In this document: positions 43,412-64,000 of the stretch, one piece after another
Layout of the letters: the number at the start of each line of letters is the position of its first letter
Position numbering within the stretch: the stretch's first letter is position 1
From: Candidatus Poribacteria bacterium
GTDB taxonomy: Bacteria; Poribacteria; WGA-4E; WGA-3G
Direction: 5' to 3'
DNA length: 64,000 nucleotides
Assembly (NCBI GenBank): GCA_965261435.1
Contig: CBDHDL010000021.1
Span: 142,872-206,871 of the forward strand
Notes under the pieces: generated by a model
Databases searched by the model: none
What the model saw: only the letters and a program-made list of their open reading frames with translations
Told to the model about the DNA's origin: nothing
Made by a program: the position numbers and the translations under genes

Positions 43412-45760
43412 GTGAAAACTTTAGGCAATAAATCAAAGAAAATTGGGCAAACCTTGATGATTCTTAGTTTTGCTTTTCTAATGTTAACAACAGTTCCTGT
43501 TATAGCGAATGAATTTGAAATCGGAACACAGTTCGGGATTTCCCGTTTTATTCCTGACAGCGAGGATTCTTCAACGACAAGTATTACCTTCACTCGGTTA
43601 CCAGCAGGAACACTTGTTGATATTGGGACATCTCCAACATCACTGTACGCGACGTTCTTTCTGGGCAAAAAATATGCGGTTGGGTCAGAATTCAGTTTTG
43701 GAGAAATGTCAGTGTCAGATGAGTCTTGGGCCGATGAGGATAACGCAAGCTTAATGACACTTCACCTTGGTGGTCGCGCATCATACTTTTTGTTTAGTCA
43801 TTCAGTATCTTCACCTTACGTATTCGGACAGATGGCTCGCACTATATTTATTGGTGATGCTAATTTCTTTTTTGAAGGTGACAACAACTCATCTCTTGCG
43901 AGTTTGGGGGGCGGTTTAGGGTATCAGTGGCGTATAGGCCCTGCTTTTGTGCTGCGGACAGAAGCACAGTATCAACGCGTGTTTGTTGTAGATGAAGATC
44001 AAAATGCAAATGAGTTCTCATTTATTATTGGCATCGGCACACGGTTCGGAGGCAATAACAACCCAGCAGAGGCAAAACTTGATCTCAATGACACAGAATT
44101 CACGCCTGTCAGTGCAAGAACACCACAGGTACGTGACGCGATTGTTGCTGCGGTGCCGGGTGTGAATAATGCTGATGCTGTGACCGCAGCACACCTCGCG
44201 GAGATTACATCTTTAGACCTTGCAGACCCATCCATCAGTTCCCTAAAAGCAGGTGATTTCAATGGACTTACCTCACTGACAGAACTCTTTCTGACTTCCA
44301 TAAGTGATATATCTGTACTTGAAGATTTGTCTTCACTGACAGAACTCAATTTGTGGAATAATTCCATAAGTGATATATCCGCACTTGAAAACCTAACAGC
44401 ACTGACAGATCTTTTTTTGTCTTCCAATTCCATAAGTGACATATCTGCGCTTGAGAACCTCACAGGACTGACAACGCTCGATCTGTCTTCCAGTACCGTA
44501 AGTGATATATCCGCCATTGAAAACCTAACAGCACTGGAATGGCTCAAGCTGGGTAACAGTTCCATCAGCGATATATCTGCGCTTCAAAACTTGACAGCAC
44601 TGAAAGAACTCTATCTGTCTTCCAGTACCATAAGTAATATATCCACACTTGAAAACCTAACAGCATTGGAATGGCTCGATTTGTCTTCCAATTCCATAAG
44701 TGATATATCTGCCCTTGAAAACATGACAGCACTAACATTTCTCGATCTGTCTTCCAATTCCATAAGTGATATATCCGCACTTGAAAACTTGACAGCACTG
44801 ACAATGCTCAATCTTTATGGTAACAACATCAAGGATATATCTGCGTTTGAGGACATGACTTCACTAACAGATCTCTATCTGAGTCACAATTCCATAAGTG
44901 ATATATCCGCACTTGAAAACTTGACAGCACTGAGAACACTCAATCTGGCTAAGAATTCCGTAAGTGATATATCTGCGCTTGAAAATCTCACAGCACTGAC
45001 AGAGCTCACTCTACCTGAAAGTTCCATAAATGATATATCTGCGCTTGAAAATCTCACAGCACTGACAACGCTCTATCTGGGTAGCAACGATATCAATGAT
45101 ATATCTACGCTTGAAAACTTGACAGCACTGACAGAACTCCATCTGTTTTCCAATTCCATAAGTGATATATCTGCGCTTGAAAACATGACCTTACTGAGAG
45201 AGCTGAATCTGGGGGGTAATTCCATAAGTGATATACCGTCTCTTGAAAACTTGACAGCACTGACAACGCTCTATCTGTGGGATAATTCCATAAGCGATAT
45301 ATCTGTGCTTGAAAACCTGACTTCACTGAGAACACTGAATATATATCGCAACGACATCAAGGATATATCTGGGCTTGAAAACCTGACCTTATTGAAAGAT
45401 CTCTATCTGAGTCACAATTCCATAAGTGATATATCCGCGCTTGAAAACTTGACAGTGCTAACAAGGTTGACTTTGCATCACAATGCTATCAGCGATGTAT
45501 CTGCGCTTGAAAACCTGAATGCACTGAAAATGCTCAAGCTGAGTCACAATTCCATCAAGGATATATCTGCACTTGAAAACCTGATTGCACTGACAGAGCT
45601 CAATCTGGATAATAATTCTATAAGTGATATATCCGCACTTGAAAATTTGACAGCATTGAAAAAGCTTGAACTGCGGAACAATCCGATTTCAGATTACGGA
45701 CCGCTTCGTAGACTCAAAGCAAAAAATCCAGGTATGCAGACTGATATTACTATTCCGTAG
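43412..45760 (+). CDS. paralogous LRR protein with N-terminal signal peptide and outer-membrane beta-barrel-like domain; C-terminal sorting domain lost
   Basis: GTG start 5 nt after AAGGAG. Signal MILSFAFLMLTTVPVIA. About 200-aa region of alternating hydrophobic strands ending ...FSFIIGIGTRFGG (OMP beta-barrel-like). Then the RTPQVRDAIVAAVPGV cap and about 25 LRRs (NSISDISALENLTAL). It ends ...TDITIP-TAG. Confidence 0.7.
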   Translation: MKTLGNKSKKIGQTLMILSFAFLMLTTVPVIANEFEIGTQFGISRFIPDSEDSSTTSITFTRLPAGTLVDIGTSPTSLYATFFLGKKYAVGSEFSFGEMSVSDESWADEDNASLMTLHLGGRASYFLFSHSVSSPYVFGQMARTIFIGDANFFFEGDNNSSLASLGGGLGYQWRIGPAFVLRTEAQYQRVFVVDEDQNANEFSFIIGIGTRFGGNNNPAEAKLDLNDTEFTPVSARTPQVRDAIVAAVPGVNNADAVTAAHLAEITSLDLADPSISSLKAGDFNGLTSLTELFLTSISDISVLEDLSSLTELNLWNNSISDISALENLTALTDLFLSSNSISDISALENLTGLTTLDLSSSTVSDISAIENLTALEWLKLGNSSISDISALQNLTALKELYLSSSTISNISTLENLTALEWLDLSSNSISDISALENMTALTFLDLSSNSISDISALENLTALTMLNLYGNNIKDISAFEDMTSLTDLYLSHNSISDISALENLTALRTLNLAKNSVSDISALENLTALTELTLPESSINDISALENLTALTTLYLGSNDINDISTLENLTALTELHLFSNSISDISALENMTLLRELNLGGNSISDIPSLENLTALTTLYLWDNSISDISVLENLTSLRTLNIYRNDIKDISGLENLTLLKDLYLSHNSISDISALENLTVLTRLTLHHNAISDVSALENLNALKMLKLSHNSIKDISALENLIALTELNLDNNSISDISALENLTALKKLELRNNPISDYGPLRRLKAKNPGMQTDITIP

Positions 45761-47495: not shown

Positions 47496-47975
47496 TCCTT
47501 TATACATGATGCACTCAATGACCTATTTGAAAAACAAGAGTATCCGCGTATAGCGGATTAGCCATCAGAAAGAGAGAGCGAAGGACGAGTTGTTGAGTCT
47601 CATGACCGGAAACATTCACCTGGTTGTGTAAAGTTTTTGGCAAAGCATTGATTTTTTGCTTATGTTTGGTTTTGTTTACATAGCACTCCGCTGGAGTGCG
47701 GGCACTTGACATACATTTTTCTATAGACATAATGCTCCGCTGGAGCAAAAAGCGTTCTTGACAGGTAAGAGATATCCTCACGCCAGAGGCGTGATATGTC
47801 TATAGAACTCACAATGTCCAAAACCCCCACTCCAGCGGAGTGCTATGTCTTGGATCGAGCCGATAAGGAAACGCTGCCAAAATATTTACAGACCCGCAAC
47901 TTAGGTTAAAATAGACAAAGACATCTACACATGTTATAATATTTGATTGGAACTGTAGTCAATCTATACCAGAAC

Positions 47976-48325
47976 GTATCTCATAAATCATTTATATGGT
48001 GAGTTTTTTGTTGTTTGTGATGTATAACGGACAGGGAGACCCAGTCCCTACGAACAGAACGGACAGGGAAACCCAGTCCCTACGAACGGAACGGACAGGG
48101 AGACCACGCCCCTACGAACGGAACGGACAGGGAGACCCAGTCCCTACGAACAGAACGGACAGGGAAACCCAGTCCCTACGAACAAACGGACAGGGAGACC
48201 CAGTCCCTACGAACAAACGGACAGGGAAACCCAGTCCCTACGAACAAACGGACAGGGAAACCCAGTCCCTACGAAAAACAGGTGCTGTGATGAGAAATTT
48301 ATGGACAATTAGGTTTATGAGATAC
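47976..48325. repeat. about 350-bp element with 12-13-bp terminal inverted repeats (GTATCTCATAAA ... TTTATGAGATAC) containing the dispersed 110-bp element and a spacerless tandem array; it ends 17 nt before the metH ATG
   Basis: Left end 47976..47987 gtatctcataaa; right end 48314..48325 tttatgagatac. The interior matches 12693..12805. Confidence 0.55.
48026..48278. repeat. tandem array of eight 31-32-nt units AACGGACAGGGA(G/A)ACCCAGTCCCTACGAAC(A/G)(G/A), each containing an imperfect hairpin
   Basis: Units at 48026, 48058, 48090, 48122, 48154, 48186, 48217 and 48248. No spacers. The ORF 47996..48370 is just a translation of this array. Confidence 0.85.
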
Positions 48326-48341
48326 ACTCTAAATCTATATC

Positions 48342-51300
48342 ATGGAAGAGAATTTAGCGTTTATGGCTGATCCAGATCGAATTACACAGTTGAAACATGC
48401 ACTGTCAGAGCGGATTTTGGTGCTTGATGGTGCGATGGGTTCACTTATACAGACGTATCAACTCTCGGAAGCGGATTTTCGAGGTGAGACGTTCGCTGAT
48501 CATACTTCTGAACTCAAAGGTTATAATGACCTGTTATCTATCACGCAACCACAAATTATCAGAGAAATTCATAGCAGTTACTGTAACGCAGGTGCTGACA
48601 TACTCACAACTAACACCTTCACAAGCACGTCGGTGTCAATGGCAGACTATCAGCTTGAAGAATTTGCATATCAGGTCAACGTTTCAGCAGCCCAAATTGC
48701 TCGTGAAATAGCTGATGCTTGCTCAACAGTTGAAAAGACTCATTTCGTTGCAGGTAGCATGGGACCAACGAATCGAAGTTGTTCAATCTCTCCGGATGTA
48801 AACGATCCAGGTTACCGTAATATCACTTTTGCTGAACTCGTTTCTGCCTATACGACACAAGCTGAAGGCTTAATTGATGGCGGTGTGGATTTACTACTCG
48901 TTGAGACCGTTATGGACACACTAAATTGCAAAGCAGCACTTTTTGCAATTCAAACTCTAACAGAAAAACGTGGGATCAACATCCCGACTATCGTTTCATC
49001 AGACAGGAGTGGTGGCGGCGGAAGAAACCTGTCAGGACAAACAGTCGAAGCATTCTGGAATTCTATTCGACACGTAGACTTACTTGCTGTCGGTTTAAAC
49101 TGTGGTTTTGGAGCGAAGCAGATAAGACCCTTTCTTGTGGAGATGTCAAAGCTTGCAGACATTCCCATCATTTGTTATCCAAATGCGGGTCTACCCAATG
49201 AACTTGGTCACTATACTCAGACACCTGAAGAACTGGGTAACTGGATGCACGATTTCGCTCGCAACGGATTCGTCAATATCGTAGGTAGTTGTTGTGGTAG
49301 TCAACCTGAGCATATAGAAGCGATTGTCAAGGTCGCGGCAGCGTATCCACCCCGTCAACTCCAATCACAAAAACCTGCCTGCAGACTCAGCGGTTTAGAG
49401 GCATTCAATATTACACCGGAATCCCTCTTTGTAAACGTTGGCGAAAGAACAAATGTCACAGGTTCACGAAGATTTGCATCACTCATCAAGAAGGAAGATT
49501 ATGAAACAGCATTAGAAGTCGCTCGTGATCAAGTCGAAAACGGTGCACAACTGATCGATATTAATATGGATGCGGGTCTGTTAGATGCCAAAACTGCCAT
49601 AGTCAAGTTCATAAATCTCATCGCTGCAGAACCAGATATAAGCCGTGTTCCTATTATGATAGATTCCAGTAAATGGGAAGTAATTGATGCAGGTTTACAA
49701 TGTATACAAGGAAAAGGTGTCGTCAACTCAATTAGTTTGAAAGAGGGTGAGGACGATTTCTTAGATAAAGCACGAAGTATTAGACATTACGGCGCTGCTG
49801 TCATTGTAATGGCGTTTGATGAAAAAGGACAAGCCGATACGCTTCAACGCAAAGTAGAAATTTGTCAAAGAGCGTATCAATTGTTAATAGAAGAAGTTGA
49901 TTTCCCCCCTGAAGACATTATCTTTGATCCTAATATCTTCGCGATAGCAACAGGGATTGATGAGCATAATGAATATGCGCTTGCTTTTATAGATGCATGC
50001 AAGCAGATCAAAGAGACTTGTCCGCACGCCTTAGTCAGTGGAGGCGTCAGTAACGTTTCCTTTGCCTTTCGCGGTAACGATACAGTTCGCGAAGCGATGC
50101 ACGCAGCGTTTCTTTACCATGCGATCAATGCTGGTATGGATATGGGGATCGTAAATGCTGGACAACTTGCTGTCTATGACGACATCCCTAAACCCCTCTT
50201 AGATTCTGTAGAAGATGTATTATTTAATCGACGAAAAGATGCAACAGACCGACTCGTTAATTTGGCAGAAACATTGCATGGTACAAAAAAGAAGAAACGT
50301 GTTGATAAAGAATGGCGGAAGCTCTCCGTTGAAGATCGGTTAAGTCACGCCCTCGTAGAAGGTGTCACTGAACACATCGTGGAAGATACTGAGGAAGCAA
50401 GATTAAAATACAAGCGTCCGATACAGGTAATTGAAGGTCCTCTGATGTTCGGAATGGACAGAGTCGGTGAGTTGTTCGGAGACGGTAAGATGTTCCTACC
50501 TCAAGTTATCAAAAGCGCACAGGTAATGAAACGCGCTGTTGCACATTTAATTCCATTTATTGAAAAGGAGCAATCTGAAGGAGAAATCAAATCAAGAGGG
50601 AAATTAGTCATGGCAACAGTGAAAGGTGATGTCCATGACATTGGGAAGAACATCGTTGGTGTGGTCCTTGGTTGTAACAACTATGAAATCATTGACCTTG
50701 GGGTCATGGTAGCTGCAGAAGATATATTGGAAACAGCACGCAAAGAAGATGCTGATATAATTGGTTTAAGTGGTCTAATTACACCTTCATTGGATGAGAT
50801 GGTTCATGTTGCAAAGGAGATGGAAAGAGAAGGTTTCAGTATTCCACTCCTCATTGGTGGTGCCACTACATCAAAAATACATACAGCTATTAAGATTGAA
50901 CCTGAATACAATGGGGCAACGATACACGTCAAAGATGCATCCCGCAGTGTTGGTGTCGTTCGCAACTTACTGAGCAATGAAAACCGACAAACAATAGTCA
51001 ACCAGACACGTGAAGAATATGAAGGAATTCGTAAGAAGCGAGCCAAAACGCAACAACGAACCAATCTTTTACCATTTGGAACAGCACAGCAACGCAAACT
51101 AAGACTTGATTGGCAAGACTACAATCCAGATAAACCGAGAATGACAGGAGTCAAGGTTTATGAGGATTTTCCGCTTGAAGAACTTGTCACCTATATTGAT
51201 TGGACACCTTTTTTCACTACTTGGGAAATGAAAGGAAAATATCCTAAAATATTGGATGATTCAAAGATAGGTCCAAAGGCACAAGAACTGTATAAAGATG

Positions 51301-52034
51301 CAAATAAATTATTAGATGATATTATCAGTTATAAGAAGATTTCCGCCAAAGGGGTTATAGGAATCTTCCCAGCTAATTCTGTTGGTGAAGACATAGAAAT
51401 ATATAATGAAGACAGAACAGCAGTCATCGCAACAATTCATCACTTACGGCAACAGACAGAACAACCATTCTCAAGACCAAATCTGAGTCTTGCAGATTTC
51501 ATAGCGCCAAAAAACACATCAATACCTGATCATATAGGTGCATTCGCAGTGACAACAGGTATTGGTGTACCTGAACTTTGTAATGAATTTGAAGAGAATC
51601 ATGACGACTACAACAGCATTATGACCAAAGCAATCGCAGACCGTTTAGCAGAAGCCTTCGCAGAATATATGCACAAGCATGTGAGGAGAGAATTATGGGG
51701 TTACGCTGGTCATGAGGAATTGGAAAACGAAGAACTCATTGCGGAAAAATATAGAGGTATCAGACCCGCCCCAGGTTATCCAGCATGTCCAGATCACAAT
51801 CAGAAACGAGTATTGTTTCGTCTATTGAATGCGACTGAAAATACCGATATCTCACTCACTGAGAGTCTTGCCATGTTTCCAGCTGCTTCAGTGAGTGGTT
51901 GGTATTTTTCACATCCGGAATCAAGATACTTTAGCATTGCCAGAATTGGAGAGGATCAAATTGCAAGTTATGCCAAACGATCAGAAATGGATTTGGACAC
52001 TGCAAGACGCTGGTTAAGACCTTTATTGCTGTAA
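48342..52034 (+). CDS. metH: cobalamin-dependent methionine synthase
   Basis: 1230 aa. N-terminal [15 protein letters not shown] (Hcy domain), pterin-binding domain, B12-binding domain and C-terminal activation domain. An alternative start, MADPDR at 48363, is preceded by GAAGAG. Confidence 0.9.
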
Positions 52035-52051
52035 AGGAAATAAAAAACAGG

Positions 52052-52082
52052 GAAGCTATAATAGATAACTTCCCTGTCCTGC
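52052..52082 (-). terminator. rho-independent terminator for the minus-strand VOC gene array (between metH and the first VOC gene)
   Basis: On the minus strand, CAGGGAAG-ttatctattatag-CTTCCCTG is followed by TTTTTT. Confidence 0.5.
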
Positions 52083-52148: not shown

Positions 52149-52511
52149 CTATTGTTGGTGTAAACCCAAGATATTTCCACTTGGATCAATAAACATAGCA
52201 AAAGACCCCATGTTATTAGGTATTTCTTGGGGTGGGATAAGTATTTTACCGCCGTTACTTTCAACGTTCTTAACTGCTGCGTGCAGATCGTCAACGGATA
52301 TATAAAAAGTGACCTGGTTTGTATACGGCATTTCATCTGTAGTTGGGAAGATGTGTCCTTTTATTCCTTCTTCTGAACCAGTATCACAGAAATAGACTCC
52401 ACTGTTTTCTGGTGAAATCTCCCAACCAAATATTGATCCGTAAAACTCACAGAGTTCATCAGCGTTTTTACCTGCTATTTCAAACCACATGACTGGATTA
52501 CTCATTGACAA
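52149..52511 (-). CDS. VOC (glyoxalase / bleomycin-resistance-like) family protein, paralog 1 of 5
   Basis: MSNPVMWFEIAGKNADELCEFYGSIFGWEI ... VESNGGKILIPPQEIPNNMGSFAMFIDPSGNILGLHQ. 120 aa. Confidence 0.6.
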   Translation of the reverse strand: MSMSNPVMWFEIAGKNADELCEFYGSIFGWEISPENSGVYFCDTGSEEGIKGHIFPTTDEMPYTNQVTFYISVDDLHAAVKNVESNGGKILIPPQEIPNNMGSFAMFIDPSGNILGLHQQ

Positions 52512-52572
52512 TAACTCCTTTTTGTTTTTACATGTATGACTATTGGTTAGTCCATATTAAAATCGTTGTGTC

Positions 52573-52660
52573 TATCATGTCCAAATCAACGTCAAATGCG
52601 CGTTTGGCATTTGACGGGTTTCGCTTCGCTCTACCCGACCTACAAGTTAAGTATTGACTA
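52573..52660. repeat. dispersed about 90-bp element: CCAAATCAACGTCAAATGCGCGTTTGGCATTTGACG hairpin plus GTTTCGCTTCGCTCTACCCGACCTACAAGTTAAGTATTGAC
   Basis: Near-identical partial copy at 63880..63930 and a diverged copy at 63520..63610. All are intergenic. Confidence 0.7.
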
Positions 52661-52682
52661 AAGAGGGTATGTATACCGTTTT

Positions 52683-53075
52683 CTATTTTTGATGTAACCC
52701 GATAACATTTCCACTCGGATCACTGAACATTGCAATTGCCCCCAATCCATCAGGAAGTTCTTGCGGTGTTACAAGTGTCTTTCCGCCGCTGTTTTCAATT
52801 TTATTGAGTGTTTCATGCAGGTCTTCTACCTGTATGAATATAGAAATGCGATTTTCAAAGTCAGTATTATCAGGCAATGGATAGATGTGTCCTCTAATTC
52901 CTTGGTCAGGTAAAGGTTCTGGAGTTGGATCAATCACCAAGATGTCATTAGGATAGTGTGATGTGCTCCATTTGAAGGGTAGAATTATCCATTCATCATA
53001 TAAGGAAGAATAAAAGTCTTGTAAGGATTCACCATCCTTACCCGCGATTTCAAAAAACATTACAGGATTACCCAT
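52683..53075 (-). CDS. VOC family protein, paralog 2 of 5
   Basis: MGNPVMFFEIAGKDGESLQDFYSSLY ... GGKTLVTPQELPDGLGAIAMFSDPSGNVIGLHQ. The start is taken at the internal Met (53075) rather than the 155-aa ORF start at 53150, which overlaps paralog 3. Confidence 0.55.
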   Translation of the reverse strand: MGNPVMFFEIAGKDGESLQDFYSSLYDEWIILPFKWSTSHYPNDILVIDPTPEPLPDQGIRGHIYPLPDNTDFENRISIFIQVEDLHETLNKIENSGGKTLVTPQELPDGLGAIAMFSDPSGNVIGLHQK

Positions 53076-53478
53076 TGTGTAAGTCTCCTTTTCTCTGATT
53101 TGAGTCATATAATCCAATTCGATTTCCACTGGGGTCAAGGAACATTCCAATCATTTCACCTTTTTCAGATACAACAGTAGGAGGCATCAGTATCTTACCA
53201 CCAAGGATCACAAGTTTATCAACCGTAGCCTGTATATTTTCAACAGTAACATAGATAGTTACACTGTTTCCAAAAGGAACACCTTCAACTAATTGCATTT
53301 CATCGTTTGGAGGGTATATGTGTCCTTCAATACCTTTAGCATCTTCAGAACCTGTCTCAAACCAATAGAATCCTTCCTCATAAGAATGCATCTCCCAATC
53401 AAACACATCACTATAAAATTCACTTAATGCCTTACTTTCTTCAGAAGCAATTTCAATGTTAGTAACTGGATTAGACAT
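53068..53478 (-). CDS. VOC family protein, paralog 3 of 5
   Basis: MSNPVTNIEIASEESKALSEFYSDVFDWEM ... GGKILMPPTVVSEKGEMIGMFLDPSGNRIGLY. Confidence 0.55.
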   Translation of the reverse strand: MSNPVTNIEIASEESKALSEFYSDVFDWEMHSYEEGFYWFETGSEDAKGIEGHIYPPNDEMQLVEGVPFGNSVTIYVTVENIQATVDKLVILGGKILMPPTVVSEKGEMIGMFLDPSGNRIGLYDSNQRKGDLHNG

Positions 53479-53492
53479 TTCCTTCTCCCAAT

Positions 53493-53864
53493 TTAAGAAG
53501 TTTGCAATCTACGCTGCAGCAGTCCAATACTATTTCCGCTTGGATCATTGAACAATGCATAATGGCTTGAATTACCGGGAATTTCTTGGGGTGGTATAAT
53601 TATTTCTCCACCGAGGTTCTCTGCTTTCTTAAGACATGCATGAATATCATCAACTTGGACATAAATTAAAATAAGGTTTTTAAAGTTCATCTTATCGGTT
53701 GTTTCAAATAGATGCCCTTCTATCCCTTTGTCGGTTTCTGGATCAGCTATATATAATTCGTCATCTAATGGAAATATGTTCCATCCGAATACTGCACTAT
53801 AGAAGCCGATCTGTTTTTTGAGATTCTGTCCACCTATTTCAAAATGTAAAACAGGACTGCTCAT
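53493..53864 (-). CDS. VOC family protein, paralog 4 of 5
   Basis: MSSPVLHFEIGGQNLKKQIGFYSAVFGWNI ... GGEIIIPPQEIPGNSSHYALFNDPSGNSIGL. Confidence 0.6.
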   Translation of the reverse strand: MSSPVLHFEIGGQNLKKQIGFYSAVFGWNIFPLDDELYIADPETDKGIEGHLFETTDKMNFKNLILIYVQVDDIHACLKKAENLGGEIIIPPQEIPGNSSHYALFNDPSGNSIGLLQRRLQTS

Positions 53865-53917
53865 AGTTCACTCCATCCAAAGTGTGTAATTTAGAGTAAT
53901 AAATTGGTTGAAATACA

Positions 53918-54277
53918 TTACTTAGATTGGAACAGACCAAGACAATTACCACTTGGGTCAAGAAACATAGCAAACAGATCATCACCATCAGGGATAGGCA
54001 TGGGTCCCATAATTACCTTACCACCATGATTTTCAACCTTTTTGGCAGATTTTTCAATGTCACTTACCTCAATGTAAAAGGTAACATGGTTTGTTATTGG
54101 CATCTCTTCGGTTGTCTGGACAATATGTCCATTAATGCCTTCTTGAGACCCCGTATTGACGGTATTACCACACTCATCATCTTGATTGATTTCCCATTGG
54201 AACAGTGAACTATAGAAATCGATTAGGTTATCCTCTTTTTTGCCTGCGATTTCAAATATCGTTACAGGGTTTCCCAT
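53918..54277 (-). CDS. VOC family protein, paralog 5 of 5
   Basis: MGNPVTIFEIAGKKEDNLIDFYSSLFQWEI ... GGKVIMGPMPIPDGDDLFAMFLDPSGNCLGLFQ. Confidence 0.6.
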   Translation of the reverse strand: MGNPVTIFEIAGKKEDNLIDFYSSLFQWEINQDDECGNTVNTGSQEGINGHIVQTTEEMPITNHVTFYIEVSDIEKSAKKVENHGGKVIMGPMPIPDGDDLFAMFLDPSGNCLGLFQSK

Positions 54278-54509
54278 TTTTTACTCCATCTTTCTCATTT
54301 ATGATATAGTGCATAGTCCATCTTAAACTTGTAGGTGGGTAGATGTTTTTTACATTGATTTTTCCACCACATTAAAATACGCTTATATTTAGCAATCGTT
54401 GCATTGAATTCAATAGAAAATCACTGTATTTTCCTTACATTTTTTCTGTTGTTATTTTGCGGTATATTCTATATAATTGTGTTCAAGTAAATATTGGTGA
54501 AACATAAAC

Positions 54510-55400
54510 ATGCAAACATCACATAAATATCTTGACCCAGTTGCTCTTTCACGTATAGGCGGCATGGAACTCGTTGCGCGACTCGTGGTAGAGGGGTTTG
54601 TTACCGGACTACACAAAAGTCCATATCAAGGATTCAGTGTTGAATTCGCTGAGCATAGACAGTACATGCCTGGCGATGAGATTCGTTATATTGATTGGAA
54701 AGTGTTCGGCAAGTCAGATAGGTTTTATGTTAAAAAGTTTGAAGAGGAAACAAACTTACGCGCATACATCCTGCTTGATACAAGTGCATCAATGAGCTAC
54801 AAACACAGTGACGATGTCCTTACGAAGTTTGAATACGGGTGTTATCTTGCAGCGACACTAACCTATCTCATGTTGAAACAGCGTGACTCAGTTGGTTTAG
54901 CACTTTTTGATACTGATATTAATCAATACATCCCACCGAGAGGCGCAGCAACTCATCTACGTGCAATCATGAATGCATTGGAGAATGCTACGCCAGGTGA
55001 GGAGACTAAGTTAAGTAGTCTATTTCACGAACTTGCTAAACGTATAGTCAGACGCGGTTTGGTCATTGTAATCTCAGATCTTCTTGATGAACCATCACAA
55101 GTAATTTCTGCCCTTAAGCATCTGCGTCATCAAAAACATGAAGTGATTGTTTTCCACCTCCTTGACAACGCAGAACTCACCTTCCCATATAAGGGATCAG
55201 TCATTTTCCGTGACATGGAAACTGGACAGACATTATCAACGCAAGCGGACTCACTTAAATCTGCATATCTTGAAAAGCTTAACCAGTTCATTCAAAGTTA
55301 CCGACGCGGGTGTGGATCAAGCCAAATAGACTATGTGCAAATGGATACTCAAACCCCGTTTGATCATGCCTTATCGGCATACCTCTCTCGACGTAAATAG
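54510..55400 (+). CDS. DUF58 domain protein (vWA-like, normally a MoxR-ATPase partner)
   Basis: QGFSVEFAEHRQYMPGDEIRYIDWKVFGKSDRFYVKKFEEETNLRAYILLDTSASM is the DUF58 signature. Confidence 0.75.
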   Translation: MQTSHKYLDPVALSRIGGMELVARLVVEGFVTGLHKSPYQGFSVEFAEHRQYMPGDEIRYIDWKVFGKSDRFYVKKFEEETNLRAYILLDTSASMSYKHSDDVLTKFEYGCYLAATLTYLMLKQRDSVGLALFDTDINQYIPPRGAATHLRAIMNALENATPGEETKLSSLFHELAKRIVRRGLVIVISDLLDEPSQVISALKHLRHQKHEVIVFHLLDNAELTFPYKGSVIFRDMETGQTLSTQADSLKSAYLEKLNQFIQSYRRGCGSSQIDYVQMDTQTPFDHALSAYLSRRK

Positions 55401-58359: not shown

Positions 58360-60846
58360 TTAGTGCAATCTATTTGATGCTGGTTCATGTTTTACCGGTT
58401 TTACACATCGAAATCCAATGGTGGGACTTGTACAATCAGGCGAATTTGTAACAATACGAAAAGTGACTCGAATGCCGTTTTTGGAACTAGCCCAAGATCC
58501 TCCGCGCACTACACGACCAGTTACAATATTTCTATAGTTTTTTACAATGCTATTGATACTACCTCCGGATATAGGATTTAGTTCAGGAGATATTGTATAA
58601 AAACTACCGTTATAGTCATCAAGACAATACTCAGAAACATTCCCGTATAGATCATATAAACCATAAGGATTAGAGGCATATTTACCAACAGCTGTTGTAC
58701 TCCCCACTAAAAAGTTATAATTTACATCTGAAGTCTGAGGTAGATTTATAGATTGATTATTCATTCTCCCACGTGCAGCTTTCTCCCATTCTGCTTCTGT
58801 TGGTAGTCGTTTTCCTTTCCAATTGGCATATGCCATGGCTGCATACCAACTCACATAAACTATAGGGTGATTTCCTTTACCTATTGGATAATTGTTACCA
58901 TTCCAATGGTGCAAATATTTGCCATCATGATATTTGCGCAAAATCAGATCTTTGCGCCAATTTTGATGTGAATCAATGAATTTTTTGTATTCCGAATTAG
59001 TTACCTCATAAATGTCTATGTAGAATGCATCTAAATAAACTGAATGTTCTGGTCTTTCATCCCTAAATGCATTTTGATCAGTTGCGCTGCTTCCCATTCG
59101 AAATTCACCAGCAGGTATCAGTACCATCCTTAAGTTGTTATTAATTCTTGGTGAGCTAATACGCGTGTCTTGTAACACTGATTGATTATCAGAGTTCCTA
59201 ATAGATCTAAAAGTGGAAGTTAACCGTTTTATTTCTGCATTTTTCTCGCTGAGTTGAGATTTCAGCTTGTTGTTTTCATTGGTTAATGTCCTTTGATTTT
59301 TTTTCGATGTTTCTACACTTGCTGTAAGCTGCTGAATTTCAGTACTTTGATTTTTCTGACTAAGTTTTAGTCTATCGATTTCAAGTAAAGCGGAATTCTT
59401 CTTATCCATCTGAAACACAAAGGCTATAATGCAACAGACCGAGACTAAGGCTAATAGACCTATGCTGTATTCTTTTATTTTAAATGGGGGTTTTGATGAC
59501 AAAGTATGTGCTGGTTTAGTATGGGTTGGTTGATCGGTAGAATCTTGTTCTTGAGTTGAATTAGCATCTGTAGAGGCATGTATAGAAGTGACTTCTGAAG
59601 TCTTAATAGTTTTCAACAACTGTTTTGCAGGTTGGTAGTGTGGATCAATTCTTAACGCATCACTAATTGCACTATTTGCCTTGTTAATTTCACCCAATTT
59701 AAAATGGGTTAGTCCTAACCCGTAATGTGCTTCTTTATAGTCTGGATCTTGACTGATTGCGTATCCAAATGCAACTATCGCTTCAGTAAATCTCTTAGTG
59801 TGGAGATTAGCAAGGCCAAAACCATAAATAGCGCGCTTATAATTGCAATCTATAGATACGGCCTTCTGGAATTCTATAAGTGCTTCAGTATACTGTTTGT
59901 TGCTTAAAAGTATAAAACCGGAATCTGTATGTGAATTAACATCGGGCATTGGTAGTATATCTTCTAAGGGATGTAATTGATCAATGGAAGTCTTACCACA
60001 ATAATCTTTTAGAGTTGTTGCTAACTGACGAATTTCAGAGGATAATTTGTTAAGTTCTTGAAATATCTCCGATTGGTTTGGATTCTTAAAATCCTCCTTT
60101 GTGAATAGCAAGCCTTTTTCAGTCTTATCTTTAAACTTATCCCACAATTCAGGTCTTTCAGATAAACTAAGAAAAGACAAATATATCACTAACTCAGAAA
60201 AATAATCCATTTTCTCGTTGCATTGATCAGTTCTTAGAGGATGTTGATATTCTGGAAGTCCTGGAGTTGGACTTTTTTGGCCTTGAAGATTAGGTACAAA
60301 GAGACTGTCATAATCAATTAGTTTGATTGTTATATTTTTTCCATTTCTTGTTAGTAGTATATTCCCATCTTGCAGATCACCATGGGATATCTGATTTACA
60401 TGTAGACACTCAAACATTTTCCTAAATTCATCTGCTACTATGGCAAAGATACCAGTATCATTGAGATTCTGATCAACAAATGCGCGCAACAAATCACCAT
60501 CTGTCCATTCCATACGAGTGATCGGCCATTTCTTACCGTTGATTAGGATTCCTTCTTGTACATATTCAAAATCAACGAAGTATGGTAGATTAACTTGTTT
60601 AAGGTATCTATCAATTTTTTCATAACGATTCTTTGAATCACCAATGTCTTTATTCCAGCACCGCAACGCGTATTTACTGTGCGCGATATCAATAGGAAAA
60701 ACAGTTGAAAAACCACCAGTGTATACAAGTAATTGATTTGTCGAATTCTTCTTGGATTTACCTCCTTTAAGTAACGGATCTAGCAAGCAAACATCTGGAT
60801 ATCCACCGACAGCTTGTACATAATCCGCTGGAGTTGGCCAAAGCAT
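58360..60846 (-). CDS. transmembrane protein-kinase-like / TPR / FGE-sulfatase-domain fusion protein
   Basis: N-terminal kinase-like motifs (HGDLQDGNILL; IDYDSLF); three to four TPRs; Ser/Thr-rich linker; TM helix LLALVSVCCIIAFVF; coiled coil. C-terminal FGE/SUMF1-type domain (RMGSS...RDERPEHSVYLDAFYID.YEVTN.EY..F...; YVSWYAAMAYANWKGKRLPTEAEWEKAARG; YGLYDLYGNVSEY; RVVRGGSWAS) that lacks the catalytic Cys pair. Confidence 0.7.
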   Translation of the reverse strand: MLWPTPADYVQAVGGYPDVCLLDPLLKGGKSKKNSTNQLLVYTGGFSTVFPIDIAHSKYALRCWNKDIGDSKNRYEKIDRYLKQVNLPYFVDFEYVQEGILINGKKWPITRMEWTDGDLLRAFVDQNLNDTGIFAIVADEFRKMFECLHVNQISHGDLQDGNILLTRNGKNITIKLIDYDSLFVPNLQGQKSPTPGLPEYQHPLRTDQCNEKMDYFSELVIYLSFLSLSERPELWDKFKDKTEKGLLFTKEDFKNPNQSEIFQELNKLSSEIRQLATTLKDYCGKTSIDQLHPLEDILPMPDVNSHTDSGFILLSNKQYTEALIEFQKAVSIDCNYKRAIYGFGLANLHTKRFTEAIVAFGYAISQDPDYKEAHYGLGLTHFKLGEINKANSAISDALRIDPHYQPAKQLLKTIKTSEVTSIHASTDANSTQEQDSTDQPTHTKPAHTLSSKPPFKIKEYSIGLLALVSVCCIIAFVFQMDKKNSALLEIDRLKLSQKNQSTEIQQLTASVETSKKNQRTLTNENNKLKSQLSEKNAEIKRLTSTFRSIRNSDNQSVLQDTRISSPRINNNLRMVLIPAGEFRMGSSATDQNAFRDERPEHSVYLDAFYIDIYEVTNSEYKKFIDSHQNWRKDLILRKYHDGKYLHHWNGNNYPIGKGNHPIVYVSWYAAMAYANWKGKRLPTEAEWEKAARGRMNNQSINLPQTSDVNYNFLVGSTTAVGKYASNPYGLYDLYGNVSEYCLDDYNGSFYTISPELNPISGGSINSIVKNYRNIVTGRVVRGGSWASSKNGIRVTFRIVTNSPDCTSPTIGFRCVKPVKHEPASNRLH

Positions 60847-60865: not shown

Positions 60866-61795
60866 CTAATTCTTATTCAACAATACTATTACAAGTATTA
60901 CAAATCCTACTATAAAACCGAAAACACCTGCAAGAAAAGCCCAGAATATGAAACTAATTAATTTTGAAATTGTCTGACTATCTTCATTTGGAATATTATT
61001 TACACCTTCATGGTCATCCGAAATTTCACATTCTTCAATAGAAATCACCATTAATGTAACATCGTCATTGACTAAGCGCAACTCATCGTTACGTGCTTGT
61101 TCAACAAAGTATTCAAATTGTTCTTGTTGTTCTAAATTTGTTAATTTATCAATAATAGGACTTAGCCCTTTTGCTTCGTAGTTTTGTAAAATCCATTTTG
61201 ATAAGGCATCTGTTGCTAAGATAAGAATATCACCAGGGATGATTGTACCATTTTCTTTTCTCGGTGGACCTCCGACAGGATTGTCCTTTGGAAAACTAGC
61301 AAAACTGTCAGGCCTATATGGGAAATCATCTGACTTTTTTAATGGAAAACTGATGCATTTGGAATTCCTTAGATGAAATAGACAACTGTCTCCTATAATT
61401 AAAGCGTCCCATTCACTCCTTTCACGGTTGAATTCAATTCCAATAAAAGTAGAGAGTGCAGATTCATGTTGAGATAGACGATCAACAAGAATATATGACT
61501 TGGATTCTTGGACGATTTTAGATACTAATTCTATCCATTCTTGTTGAATAGGTTTTATCCATTCTTTCCAATTTTTTTCATTCAGTGTCAGGTTTTCATC
61601 TTTTTTGTTACAATAATATTTAACTAAAAGCTCTGCCCATTCTTTTGGAAAGAAAGATAATGTAGCACCATCCGCAACTGCAAAACGACCATTCTCTTCG
61701 TTAAGACCGTAATCGTCTTGACAGTCATCTATGGTTTCCCCTTTTTTATGGGTTTTGAAATGACTAACCTTTAATTTATTCATTAGATAATCCAT
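60866..61795 (-). CDS. PP2C-like protein phosphatase with C-terminal membrane anchor
   Basis: Metal-binding Asp contexts FAVADGAT, IIGDSCLFHL and LILATDALS fit PP2C motif order. The C-terminal hydrophobic helix is FIFWAFLAGVFGFIVGFVILVIVLL. Confidence 0.5.
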   Translation of the reverse strand: MDYLMNKLKVSHFKTHKKGETIDDCQDDYGLNEENGRFAVADGATLSFFPKEWAELLVKYYCNKKDENLTLNEKNWKEWIKPIQQEWIELVSKIVQESKSYILVDRLSQHESALSTFIGIEFNRERSEWDALIIGDSCLFHLRNSKCISFPLKKSDDFPYRPDSFASFPKDNPVGGPPRKENGTIIPGDILILATDALSKWILQNYEAKGLSPIIDKLTNLEQQEQFEYFVEQARNDELRLVNDDVTLMVISIEECEISDDHEGVNNIPNEDSQTISKLISFIFWAFLAGVFGFIVGFVILVIVLLNKN

Positions 61796-61892
61796 TCTTT
61801 ATTCATTATAACACTTATTAAAAAGAACATGAAAAATACGACCATGCAAGGTCTTACAACAAGCCAATAAAACCGGACCAAGACAAACTAAT

Positions 61893-62711
61893 CTATTTAG
61901 TGACTTTTACAAGAGATCCTGGTGAGCCAAATTCAATGATCCGACTGGTCAGAGCTTCATCTGCGTTATACGCGAAGCACCGAGCACCTGGCTGGGGAGC
62001 AAAACCGTGTTCACGGGCACTTGGAAATAAAGATTCAGGTAAAACACTCGAAATACTAAAAAGAAACTCAGCAGATGGATTATCAGAAAACTGTGAGTTA
62101 TCATATTGAAATTCCACTGGGTTGTCAGAATTTGCAATATGGATGTTATAGACTAATACATTTCCATCTGTGGTTTGGAGATTCATTATCGTTCTTGCTG
62201 CATCACCTGCTAAATCTGGATAGGTTGCTTCACCATCTGTGACGTTTATTATCACAGGTGGAAAACTGTCAGGCCAGTCAGCAATCCAATCATTGACAAT
62301 CTTTGAAGCCCTTTCAAATGCTTCATGCATTGGAGTTCCTCCACTTGCGCGAGGGAGTAACCATATTGGCAATTCTACATCTACTTCAACAACGCCGCCT
62401 GCACCATCTGGTATTTTTTTTGTAACTGCCTTTACTTCAATTGGTGAATTATAGACATCATCTATCATTCCTTCCACTACGGTATCAACGTTTTCACCAT
62501 AACTAATCACACTTACAAAGCATCGCGGTCTATACTCCGGACCTACTTGACACTTTAAAGCAAGATTAAAAATTGCACGATTGACTATTAATGTAGCTTG
62601 TTCTAATTTCAATCCAGTTTGCCAATCTTCATTCATAGACCACGACTGATCTACTAAAATAACAATACAACCTGGATTTGATGTTCCTATAGGGAGATTA
62701 CTATAAGCCAT
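61893..62711 (-). CDS. vWA domain protein (TerY-like)
   Basis: MIDAS motifs VILVDQSWSM, SGGTPM and NVTDGEAT. 272 aa. First gene of a vWA / phosphatase / kinase triad. Confidence 0.7.
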   Translation of the reverse strand: MAYSNLPIGTSNPGCIVILVDQSWSMNEDWQTGLKLEQATLIVNRAIFNLALKCQVGPEYRPRCFVSVISYGENVDTVVEGMIDDVYNSPIEVKAVTKKIPDGAGGVVEVDVELPIWLLPRASGGTPMHEAFERASKIVNDWIADWPDSFPPVIINVTDGEATYPDLAGDAARTIMNLQTTDGNVLVYNIHIANSDNPVEFQYDNSQFSDNPSAEFLFSISSVLPESLFPSAREHGFAPQPGARCFAYNADEALTSRIIEFGSPGSLVKVTK

Positions 62712-63810: not shown

Positions 63811-64000
63811 CAATCCCAATAACTATAAGGGTTCGAAATGATTCATAGAAACATCAAAATTCTCTTAAATTGACACCTATAGGTTTCGCTTCGCTCTACC
63901 CGACCTACAAGTTAAGTATTGACAGAACACTAATGTGAACCTGAACTGTCGAATTTCCTGATCGCATCATCAATTGCTTTTCTGTATGCAGCTCTGGCTA

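Follow-up and report, generated by a model that had tools for sequence, protein, structure and literature searches.

We propose that the 64-kb window (the whole stretch of Poribacteria DNA that was analyzed) encodes a battery of five VOC-fold proteins, V1 to V5, that share a pocket chemistry or a binding mode and that have five related small-molecule targets. This is our best explanation, and we rate its chances at about even. The five proteins would be cytoplasmic and single-domain, with common chemistry and differing specificities, and each copy would act on a different, related small molecule. The shared chemistry would be acid/base chemistry that is metal-independent (or that relies on a non-canonical metal), or else the five proteins would have one common binding mode. 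The array would then be a detoxification or processing battery against small compounds, probably aromatic or electrophilic, of the sponge or coral holobiont. What points to the same chemistry or binding mode on different small molecules is that the putative pocket appears to combine a constant polar core with a lining that is specific to each paralog. Counting against this explanation, we found no gene neighbor or paper that ties the array to a pathway or a compound: we did not find any biosynthetic cluster or efflux gene near the array, and in the literature on Poribacteria and glyoxalase and on bleomycin resistance in sponge symbionts, we found no description of it.

The array and its genes

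Positions 52149 to 54277 contain five co-directional ORFs on the minus strand, all of which lie fully inside this span. Every one of them passes PF00903, which bears out the first-pass annotation of five tandem VOC paralogs. We found no other ORFs of the PF00903 family within the 64-kb window. The array and its surroundings are:

53918..54277, minus strand: V1, VOC paralog of 119 aa, the first gene of the array (ORF; PF00903, 29.5 bits)
53493..53864, minus strand: V2, VOC paralog of 123 aa (ORF; PF00903)
53068..53478, minus strand: V3, VOC paralog of 136 aa (ORF; PF00903)
52683..53075, minus strand: V4, VOC paralog of 130 aa (ORF; PF00903)
52512..52682, minus strand: V4-V5 spacer, at 171 nt longer than any other gap in the array
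52149..52505, minus strand: V5, VOC paralog of 118 aa, the last gene of the array (ORF; PF00903)
52044..52080, minus strand: hairpin and T-run resembling an intrinsic terminator, which ends the array and lies between it and the convergent metH (terminator scan and RNA folding)
54278..54509, no strand assigned: intergenic region that separates V1 from the divergent DUF58 gene, where the promoter of the array is presumed to lie
48342..52034, plus strand: metH (cobalamin-dependent methionine synthase), outside the array, the downstream boundary of the slot (ORF; Pfam domains of the orthologue in locus L001)
54510..55400, plus strand: DUF58 gene, outside the array, divergent, the upstream boundary of the slot (ORF and orthologues)

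Every ATG that we chose is preceded, at a distance of about 7-10 nt, by a Shine-Dalgarno motif (GGAG/AGGAG). The start of V4 is an ATG that is preceded by AAGGAG, and the TTG at 53150 that the ORF lister gave, further upstream, is not the start. For V5, we took the ATG; the alternative TTG at 52511 would give a protein of 120 aa. With these starts, V1-V5 are all called genes on a single public Poribacteria contig of 4,832,559 bp. Two of the exact matches are P0002 for V1 and P0022 (130 aa) for V4. The 90% cluster of V5 has 34 members, one of which is labelled "VOC family protein [Candidatus Poribacteria bacterium]". V3 carries an insertion of 6 residues in a loop and is extended by a C-terminal tail, and its stop overlaps the start of V4 by 8 nt (ATGGGTAA). 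In V4, helix 1 is followed by an 8-residue insertion.

Family and predicted fold

V1-V5 match PF00903 with 29.3-41.7 bits (the gathering cut-off is 20.6) and E values of 1e-6 to 2e-10. The AF2 model of V5 (pLDDT 91.9) has the b-a-b-b-b layout twice, and in the predicted fold, these two modules are paired as a cupped beta-sheet, as expected for the VOC superfamily. Each chain of about 120 aa is predicted to fold alone into a complete two-module cup.

By sequence, the top match in the PDB is Rv0577 (3oxh, 1e-17), followed by 2r6u (5e-12) and then by AbxF (8stb/9jt3). The sole NCBIfam family match that helps to place the proteins is to the N-terminal domain of KbpA (E from 4e-9 to 2e-4). The motifs of this branch are all found in the array: [H/W]-x-[E/D] on beta1, F-Y..F-G-W after helix 1, the tyrosine on beta5, GG...P, and D-P-x-G-N-x-x-G-L. 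By their matches and their predicted fold, V1-V5 belong to the poorly characterized branch of the VOC superfamily that comprises Rv0577, KbpA-N, AbxF, and RHA04853 (2R6U). We take this Rv0577 / KbpA / SgaA-N-like branch to be the one that is often named COG3324.

The branch is large, with 12,459 cluster representatives at E <= 1e-3. Rv0577, KbpA, and AbxF have two VOC domains in tandem, but this architecture is absent from the array, as V1-V5 are separate single-domain genes with their own stops and Shine-Dalgarno motifs. The Poribacteria homologues that we found are all of 113-152 aa, which is to say single-domain, while the relatives from outside the Poribacteria, among the best 150 of the 12,459 cluster representatives, are mostly two-domain fusions of about 240-260 aa. 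The only additional fusions that we saw among relatives were to AHSA1/SRPBCC, in a eukaryote-like protein, and, in one other protein, to a zinc ribbon that does not reach its Pfam cut-off; neither is instructive for Poribacteria.

RHA04853 from Rhodococcus sp. RHA1 (PDB 2R6U) resembles the array proteins in its single-domain size, in its H-F-E-I motif on beta1 (as in V2), and in its GG..P and D..GN..GL motifs. Unlike them, it has no histidine at the column of His51 and it is not known in arrays; it is uncharacterized. Rv0577 from M. tuberculosis (CFP32, PDB 3OXH) shares W-x-D/E on beta1, the tyrosine on beta5, and the glycine on beta8. Both Rv0577 and KbpA/SgaA from Streptomyces differ from the array proteins in that they are two-domain fusions of about 230-260 aa and lack His51. 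Rv0577, whose function is unsettled, has been linked to TLR2 signalling and neutral-red staining, and possibly to detoxifying by-products that arise in glycerol metabolism (PMC8779077).

AbxF is described as a VOC-like enzyme in the biosynthesis of (-)-anthrabenzoxocinone (PDB 8STB, 9JT3, and 8EO9; Yan et al. Nat Chem 2025, as cited in PMC13274610). By that account, AbxF is a genuine enzyme with an aromatic polyketide as its substrate, so the branch includes a true catalyst for an aromatic small molecule. AbxF resembles the array proteins over its whole N-terminal domain (28% identity, TM 0.73-0.75), including the acidic residue on beta1, the tyrosine on beta5, and the glycine on beta8. However, AbxF is two-domain and is encoded within a polyketide gene cluster, while the array has no flanking biosynthetic cluster.

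A putative pocket with a constant core and a variable lining

Our assignment of pocket-facing residues relies on strand periodicity in the secondary structure of the AF2 model rather than on coordinates. On this basis, the pocket would have a constant polar core of Glu9, His51, Asn63, and Tyr68. Glu9 (beta1) and Tyr68 (beta5) are common to the whole subfamily, including AbxF, as is Gly114, which would also face the pocket; His51 and Asn63 are fixed in Poribacteria only. Across 260 domains from the top representatives of the wider family, position 9 is Glu or Asp in 237, Tyr68 is present in 222, and Gly114 is present in 202, but only 18 have His51. In the V3 orthogroup, 78% of the members have Glu9 and 65% have His51; the copy in the window has both.

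Positions 7, 53, 64, 70, 112, and 116, along with the loops 37-40, 90-94, and 99-102, are fixed within paralog groups but different between them, and they probably face the pocket as well. Since the paralog-specific residues lie on the same strand faces as the invariant Glu, His, and Tyr, it is plausible that the specificities of the paralogs have diversified, as the first-pass annotation had supposed. Position 7, which is the canonical ligand position on beta1, is I/H/N/F/W in V1-V5. V2 is the sole copy in the window with His7 as well as His51, and these occupy two canonical ligand positions, so some copies may have a reduced metal site. In V5, the beta1 motif is W7-F8-E9, which is like the W-x-D of Rv0577 and AbxF. 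It may also be that these conserved polar residues are there for binding, not for catalysis.

Age and conservation of the array

The N- and C-terminal motifs that the first-pass annotation saw in all five genes are real and appear as invariant positions in our alignment of V1-V5: M1, P4, V5, E9, I10, F21, Y22, W28, G50, H51, G85, G86, and P92, and also D107-P-S-G-N111..G114-L115. It had put the identity elsewhere at about 40-60%. The paralogs are indeed diverged, but the pairwise identity of the proteins is slightly lower (38-54%).

At the DNA level, repetition is detectable only in the stretches that encode the motifs (60-81% identity), and Tandem Repeats Finder found no repeat in the array. 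The array is thus old rather than recent. These two observations, and the saturation of dS between paralogs, rule out a recent amplification or gene conversion.

We read the genomic context of the array from a homologue that is 81% identical (P0005). The slot between the DUF58 gene and metH holds from 1 to 9 VOC copies in 73 Poribacteria loci. In most loci, the array has an orthologue of the DUF58 gene (91-95% identical) on its upstream side, and in most loci, metH adjoins the VOC copies. We considered a functional link with metH, but metH is convergent with the array, the synteny is phylum-wide, and there is no evidence of co-transcription, so we treat it only as a positional marker.

Within the clade of the window, the order of the paralogs is fixed, as (b b c) V1 V2 V3 V4 V5 (V5'), though copies are now and then lost or reduced to pseudogenes. 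The collinear orthogroups span loci L003-L030, and the identity within orthogroups (0.69-0.84) is higher than the identity between them (0.41-0.56). V1 is the most conserved orthogroup, with a mean identity of 0.84. V3 is the most labile: it is missing or pseudogenised in some genomes, and one V3 remnant is at L003:7768-8210. This remnant and gene fragments indicate birth-and-death evolution. Copies of the V2 type are also found in arrays of 1-3 copies in distant Poribacteria.

Every copy in the window is under purifying selection. Overall, dN/dS is 0.02-0.22, with dS of at least 0.9; by copy, dN/dS is 0.07-0.11 for V1, 0.03-0.12 for V2, 0.07-0.22 for V3, 0.02-0.12 for V4, and 0.05-0.09 for V5. 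Given these ratios and the collinear orthogroups across many Poribacteria species, the first-pass annotation was also correct that the array is maintained as well as old. The array is vertically inherited and was expanded in place at one chromosomal slot, with gene birth and death. As a lineage-specific expansion of a gene family, it is of ordinary to moderate interest.

Alternative explanations

The first-pass annotation pointed to two kinds of small VOC proteins, glyoxalases and antibiotic-binding proteins, and neither comparison holds up. One possibility would be that V1-V5 are glyoxalase I isozymes of the ordinary metal-dependent kind, with the detoxification of methylglyoxal as their role. 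This would suit the name of the Pfam family ("Glyoxalase") and the weak alignment of the C-terminal halves of the array proteins with GlxI from plants and E. coli. However, TIGR00068 (cut-off 120 bits) matches just two of the five proteins, with 15.9 bits for V1 and 21.6 bits for V2, and the identity to GlxI structures is 15-20%. Intact metal ligands were named beforehand as the sign of an ordinary glyoxalase, and the ligand columns are not intact. In E. coli numbering, H74 (beta5) corresponds to position 66 (T66), which is Thr, Ile, or Ser in the array, and E122 (beta8) corresponds to position 114, which is an invariant Gly; hhalign and HMMER align both of these positions with confidence. H5 corresponds to the variable position 7. 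The column of E56 is probably that of His51, where the alignment of beta4 is of low confidence. Neither E. coli GloA (1F9Z) nor Clostridium GlxI (3HDP) has its metal ligands conserved in the array, and E. coli GlxI has a swapped topology, unlike the predicted fold of the array proteins. The TIGR00068 scores and the H74 and E122 columns led us to reject glyoxalase I, and we consider it extremely unlikely that these are such isozymes. We also rejected FosA/FosB/FosX: NF000125 matches V1 only (E = 0.006, 16.8 bits, cut-off 250), and Foldseek gives TM of 0.35-0.40. The leading idea of the first-pass annotation was that the five are non-catalytic sequestration or resistance proteins (like BLMA, Mrd, TnmS, or EhpR), each of which binds a different toxic natural product stoichiometrically. 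BLMA (1JIE), MRD (1KMZ/2A4W), and TnmS/UcmS are likewise VOC superfamily proteins of about 120-130 aa with the concept of a small-molecule pocket, and the Mrd structure 1kmz is a full-length match (TM 0.69). The paralog-specific lining of the putative pocket would suit multiple ligands, and the holobiont is generally known to be rich in metabolites. Nevertheless, the characterized binders are only 12-19% identical to the array proteins (17% for Mrd), and the TnmS-type matches are marginal (E of 0.004-0.03). Their sites are intermolecular and swapped, and they lack the conserved Glu/His/Tyr core; the domain-swapped or arm-exchanged dimer of BLMA/Shble/TnmS, with crevices between the chains, is missing from the predicted fold of the array proteins. 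The strict retention of Glu9, His51, Asn63, and Tyr68 in each paralog is what one would sooner see with shared chemistry than with binders that have different ligands, and, as noted above, we saw neither a biosynthetic cluster nor an efflux gene in the vicinity. We see sequestration as possible but doubtful.

A role in binding other proteins is harder to credit. KbpA of Streptomyces is a binding partner and inhibitor of the Ser/Thr kinase AfsK, and V1-V5 might be regulators of this kind, each modulating a different signalling protein. This would be consistent with KbpA being their sole NCBIfam family match, with the PDB title of their best relative ("kinase inhibitor homolog Rv0577"), and with a kinase-like/TPR/FGE-sulfatase protein and a PP2C-like gene at 4-7 kb from the array. 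But the scores for the KbpA equivalog (NCBIfam NF053614, AfsK-binding protein) are 21-36 bits, far under its cut-off of 250, and of the two domains of KbpA, only the N-terminal one, a VOC domain, is matched; the window proteins are single-domain. Also, the neighbors whose adjacency was compared across loci are the DUF58 and metH flanks, both of which are conserved, and the residues that are conserved family-wide lie on the putative concave face of the strands, as for a small-molecule pocket. We think a regulatory role is highly unlikely. Somewhat less improbable, though still unlikely, is that the paralogs form heteromers with each other, either obligately or by preference, and pair so as to mimic their fused two-domain relatives. 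The array would then supply the parts for one complex or for a small number of them. The prevalence of those fusions outside of the Poribacteria fits with this, as do the V3/V4 overlap, the always tight spacing of V3 and V4 in orthologous loci (median gap, 26 nt), and the minimal arrays of distant Poribacteria, which are often pairs such as V2-c or V4-V5. Yet in many Poribacteria the slot holds just one copy, which shows that a lone copy functions; the single-domain relative 2R6U was crystallized by itself; and the predicted fold has a complete pocket in one chain, so pairing would not be needed to form it. Furthermore, the copy number in the window is odd, and the copy content differs among species.

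Potential significance of the array

Poribacteria are uncultivated and widespread symbionts of sponges and corals, and bioactive metabolites are abundant in these holobionts. Up to nine ordered and individually conserved copies at a fixed slot make the array a candidate adaptation to holobiont chemistry. A more ambitious version of our proposal, which we regard as a long shot, is that the ordered array of 4-9 genes is a "chemical-tolerance island" of Poribacteria: it would encode metal-independent VOC enzymes with a lineage-specific Glu9-His51-Asn63-Tyr68 pocket, each tuned so that it neutralizes or remodels a different aromatic or electrophilic metabolite from the host or from co-symbionts. 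Examples of such targets would be quinone-like or halogenated phenolic compounds from sponges. If this is true, the copy number should follow the chemical environment of the host. In a stronger form, neighboring copies such as V3 and V4 would act as heterodimers or in consecutive steps.

The array is also a natural series of diverged pockets on a common scaffold, which might help to assign a function to the Rv0577/KbpA/2R6U branch. This branch includes an antigen of M. tuberculosis, and the sole biochemically assigned reaction that we found in it is that of AbxF. The array is still a tandem expansion of proteins that already carry the annotation "VOC family protein", and we view it as a lead rather than as a surprise.

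Transcription of the array

The array has the features of an operon (co-directional genes, gaps of at most 171 nt, Shine-Dalgarno motifs, the 8-nt overlap of V3 and V4, and a single strong terminator), which suggests that it is organized as one. V1-V5 would probably be on one transcript that starts upstream of V1, with translational coupling likely between V3 and V4 and some independent control possible for V5. The clean terminator reported in the first-pass annotation is a strong hairpin on the minus strand (52080..52044): a 16-bp stem is followed by the T-run, with dG of -22.8 kcal/mol and z = -5.24, and 0 of 200 shuffled sequences were as stable. A promoter scan upstream of V1 found no match to the sigma-70 consensus on the minus strand. 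Across the whole window, no Rfam match was above the gathering score of its family, which leaves the array without a known riboswitch or leader on its 5' side.

The V4-V5 spacer contains a repeated element of about 45 nt, whose second copy is at 63878-63925, and a hairpin with a 10-bp stem (52590-52616). This hairpin was flagged by a pattern scan, but its stability relative to shuffled sequences is not significant (z = -1.4). The spacer may hold an internal attenuator and/or a separate promoter for V5. It is the most variable spacer across orthologous loci (52-506 nt), and in locus L001 it has a 167-bp insertion relative to L002.

Array layout and selection

The first-pass annotation reported five co-directional VOC paralogs at 52149-54277, with shared N- and C-terminal motifs, about 40-60% identity, and a clean terminator (52052..52082). 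There are indeed five ORFs in this interval, all on the minus strand, and all five proteins (V1-V5, numbered 5' to 3') pass Pfam PF00903:

54277..53918, minus, V1, 119 aa
53864..53493, minus, V2, 123 aa
53478..53068, minus, V3, 136 aa
53075..52683, minus, V4, 130 aa
52505..52149, minus, V5, 118 aa
52080..52044, minus, hairpin (16-bp stem plus T-run) that closes the array; dG -22.8 kcal/mol, z -5.2

The observation is confirmed: the hairpin matches the terminator, and both motifs are among the 26 invariant columns of our alignment. Pairwise identity is in a similar range but slightly lower than claimed (38-54%). At the DNA level, recognisable repetition is limited to the motif-coding stretches (60-81%); TRF found no tandem repeats in the array, and we found no further PF00903-family members among the other ORFs of the 64-kb window.

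The mechanical ORF starts of V4 and V5 were TTG codons (53150 and 52511). We chose ATG codons instead, which have AAGGAG/AGGAG upstream and give the conserved M-x-N-P-V N-terminus. With these starts, all five proteins match the called genes of a single public 4,832,559-bp contig residue for residue. The V3 stop and the V4 ATG overlap by 8 nt (ATGGGTAA) and the remaining gaps are 53, 14, and 171 nt. Transcription probably starts upstream of V1 and covers all five genes, and V3 and V4 are probably translationally coupled.

When each gene was compared to orthologues from seven other species (Nei-Gojobori), dN/dS was 0.02-0.22, which is approximate because dS was at least 0.9 and often saturated. 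V1 is under the strongest constraint and V3, which is also the copy most often missing, the weakest. All five genes are maintained.

The neighbours are typical for Poribacteria (genes for an LRR protein, a phosphoribosyltransferase, metH, DUF58, two Gfo/Idh/MocA oxidoreductases, a kinase-like/TPR/FGE-sulfatase protein, and PP2C-like and VWA-like genes). We found no pathway link among them, and no Rfam families in the window.

Distribution in Poribacteria

In the protein database and species-representative genomes, homologues were found only in Candidatus Poribacteria. All 73 loci retained from a GTDB scan belong to Poribacteria MAGs, obtained from sponges, corals, and similar sources, but the peptide patterns behind that scan were very specific, so it does not speak to the phylum restriction of the wider family. 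A full HMMER scan shows that the wider family extends beyond Poribacteria (12,459 cluster representatives at E <= 1e-3).

In a profile search of all loci, the family was always a co-directional run of 1-9 copies, and tblastn with the flanking proteins found a constant slot in most loci: divergent DUF58, the array, convergent metH. The 246 full-length copies cluster into distinct orthogroups (identity 0.69-0.84 within and 0.41-0.56 between), including groups b, c, d, and V5' from other arrays. The clade nearest the window (L003-L030 and L042) has the fixed order (b b c) V1 V2 V3 V4 V5 (V5'). The maximum is nine genes, reached in L004, L007, L008, L013, L014, and L026; L012 has exactly the five genes of the window, and distant Poribacteria carry only c, V2-c, V4-V5, V5, or d. 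Shortened copies occur in L016, L024, and L028. In L003, V3 is missing except for a 5'-truncated remnant (L003:7768-8210; residues 51-126, 71% identical to the window's V3), which is direct evidence that copy loss is ongoing. Given the fixed slot, the orthogroup order, and the losses, the array has expanded in place by birth and death, starting from one or two ancestral copies. The window holds its conserved five-gene core.

Placement within the VOC superfamily

NCBIfam gave only weak matches for V1-V5: the N-terminal domain of KbpA (21-36 bits, cut-off 250), glyoxalase I TIGR00068 (two of the five proteins, 16-22 bits, cut-off 120), and a Fos model. The best PDB sequence matches were Rv0577 (3oxh, 1e-17), Rhodococcus 2r6u (5e-12), and AbxF (8stb/8eo9/9jt3); glyoxalase I and antibiotic-binding TnmS-type proteins were marginal. 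For V5, AF2 with 74 homologues gave a confident model (pLDDT 91.9, pTM 0.79) consisting of two b-a-b-b-b modules.

Structure comparison of the V5 model
2r6u: score 14.3, TM 0.82
Rv0577 (3oxh): score 13.3
AbxF: TM 0.73-0.75, 28% identity
E. coli GlxI (swapped-chain site): score 8.2
Mitomycin-binding protein 2a4w (swapped-chain site): score 8.1
Bleomycin-binding protein 1jie (swapped-chain site): score 6.8
FosA and TnmS (swapped-chain site): Foldseek TM about 0.4

For proteins whose sites form between swapped chains, the alignment spans one module only (67-70 residues). The first-pass annotation suggested sequestration of or resistance to related small molecules, or sub-functionalised heteromers, and named bleomycin/mitomycin-binding proteins and glyoxalases as VOC proteins of this size; we reject a swapped binder of the bleomycin-resistance type, as 1jie and 2a4w align over one module only. 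The sequence and fold matches instead assign V1-V5 to the Rv0577/KbpA-N/AbxF/2R6U branch as single-domain proteins whose pocket is predicted to be self-contained. The beta1 acid, beta5 Tyr, and beta8 Gly of V1-V5 are also present in Rv0577 and AbxF. Judging from PDB titles, the sole relative found with assigned biochemistry is AbxF, a VOC-like enzyme whose substrate is an aromatic polyketide (Yan et al. 2025, as cited in PMC13274610). [quoted passage not shown]

One cluster representative, P0121 (1431 aa, eukaryote-looking), has about three near-identical units, each pairing an AHSA1/SRPBCC domain with two VOC domains from this subfamily. Either a run of tandem genes has been read as a single protein, or the fusion of many domains may be genuine.

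Proposed function

We propose, with about an even chance of being right, that V1-V5 are five cytoplasmic proteins that process small molecules by the same chemistry with different specificities. The chemistry would be acid/base, and either metal-independent or with a non-canonical metal. In the V5 model, invariant hydrophobics (F8, I10; G50, I52; V65, I67, I69; I113, L115) alternate with an opposite strand face that bears invariant polar residues (E9, H51, Y68, and G114). That face also carries positions that are fixed within each orthogroup yet differ between them:

Orthogroup-specific residues (groups b/c/V1/V2/V3/V4/V5)
Position 7: Y/H/I/H/N/F/W
Position 53: F/L/V/F/Y/Y/F
Position 64: Q/G/H/L/N/R/H
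Position 112: C/C/C/S/R/V/V
Position 116: Y/Y/F/L/Y/H/H

Loops 37-40, 90-94, and 99-102 and an indel at 32-34 are likewise orthogroup-specific. In the wider family (260 domains from its 150 best cluster representatives), position 9 is E/D in 237 domains, Y68 recurs in 222, and G114 in 202. At position 51 most domains have Gly (167) and only 18 have His; Asn63 shows no conservation. We infer a pocket with a family-wide Glu/Tyr core, Poribacteria-specific His51/Asn63, and paralog-specific surroundings, whose residues would lie close together in the model. Such an arrangement is expected of one chemistry on different substrates.

It is unlikely that the proteins are instead stoichiometric binders. 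Heteromeric assemblies are a more doubtful idea: two-domain fusions dominate outside Poribacteria (among the 150 best cluster representatives) and the V3/V4 overlap is a hint, but single-copy genomes exist and the predicted fold is self-contained. KbpA-like regulators that bind proteins seem improbable.

Glyoxalase I is hardly credible. The first-pass annotation had raised the case of intact GlxI metal ligands, but in the confident part of alignments to E. coli GloA (hhalign and HMMER), His74 falls at position 66 (orthogroup consensus Thr, Ile, Thr, Ser, Thr for V1-V5; Leu in the window's V2) and Glu122 at position 114 (invariant Gly), so both are lost. His5 falls at position 7 (Ile, His, Asn, Phe, Trp), and in the beta4 region, where the alignment is of low confidence, Glu56 probably corresponds to His51. 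At most two canonical ligands would survive, and in V2 alone. With these columns replaced and TIGR00068 scores so far below cut-off, we reject this identity.

V1-V5 are new members of a known branch, obscure in function, within a very familiar superfamily; NCBI already calls a 90%-identical relative a "VOC family protein." Our literature search found no paper describing the array. The fixed gene order, the range of 1-9 copies in a constant slot, and a His51/Asn63 pair specific to the lineage are not surprising in kind. They offer leads of modest interest, both for symbiont biology and for working out what the Rv0577/2R6U branch does.

Other features of the window and of related loci

The kinase-like neighbour (58360-60846, minus; 828 aa), 4 kb from the array, is an unusual signalling-type fusion in which a weak protein-kinase domain is joined to TPR repeats and, at the C-terminus, an FGE-sulfatase domain; the PP2C-like and VWA-like genes (60866-62711) come after it. 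A 782-aa protein (43412-45760, plus) carries numerous leucine-rich repeats, and its N-terminus matches an outer-membrane beta-barrel domain below threshold; it is similar to eukaryote-like repeat proteins that have been reported from sponge symbionts. The stretch 47750-48500, which lies just before the metH start and runs over it, is unusually rich in GC (0.48-0.49 versus about 0.40) and has an A-over-T skew (AT skew up to +0.29). We detected no Rfam families in this stretch, and its 124-aa ORF (47996-48370) has no Pfam match.

An element of about 45 nt (GTCAATACTTAACTTGTAGGTCGGGTAGAGCGAAGCGAAACC...) occurs twice on the minus strand of the window (52613-52660, directly after the V4 stop, and 63878-63925). 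Its 16-nt core, GAGCGAAGCGAAACCC, is also found in L009, L024, and L031, and the element has the appearance of a small intergenic repeat (REP/MITE-like). In the V4-V5 spacer, L001 (8108-8389) carries a 167-bp insertion relative to L002 (8108-8222); the two Poribacteria genomes are near-identical elsewhere. The insertion's ends are inverted (GTAGGnGGG...CCCnCCTAC-like), suggestive of a miniature mobile element that is active and has this spacer as its target.
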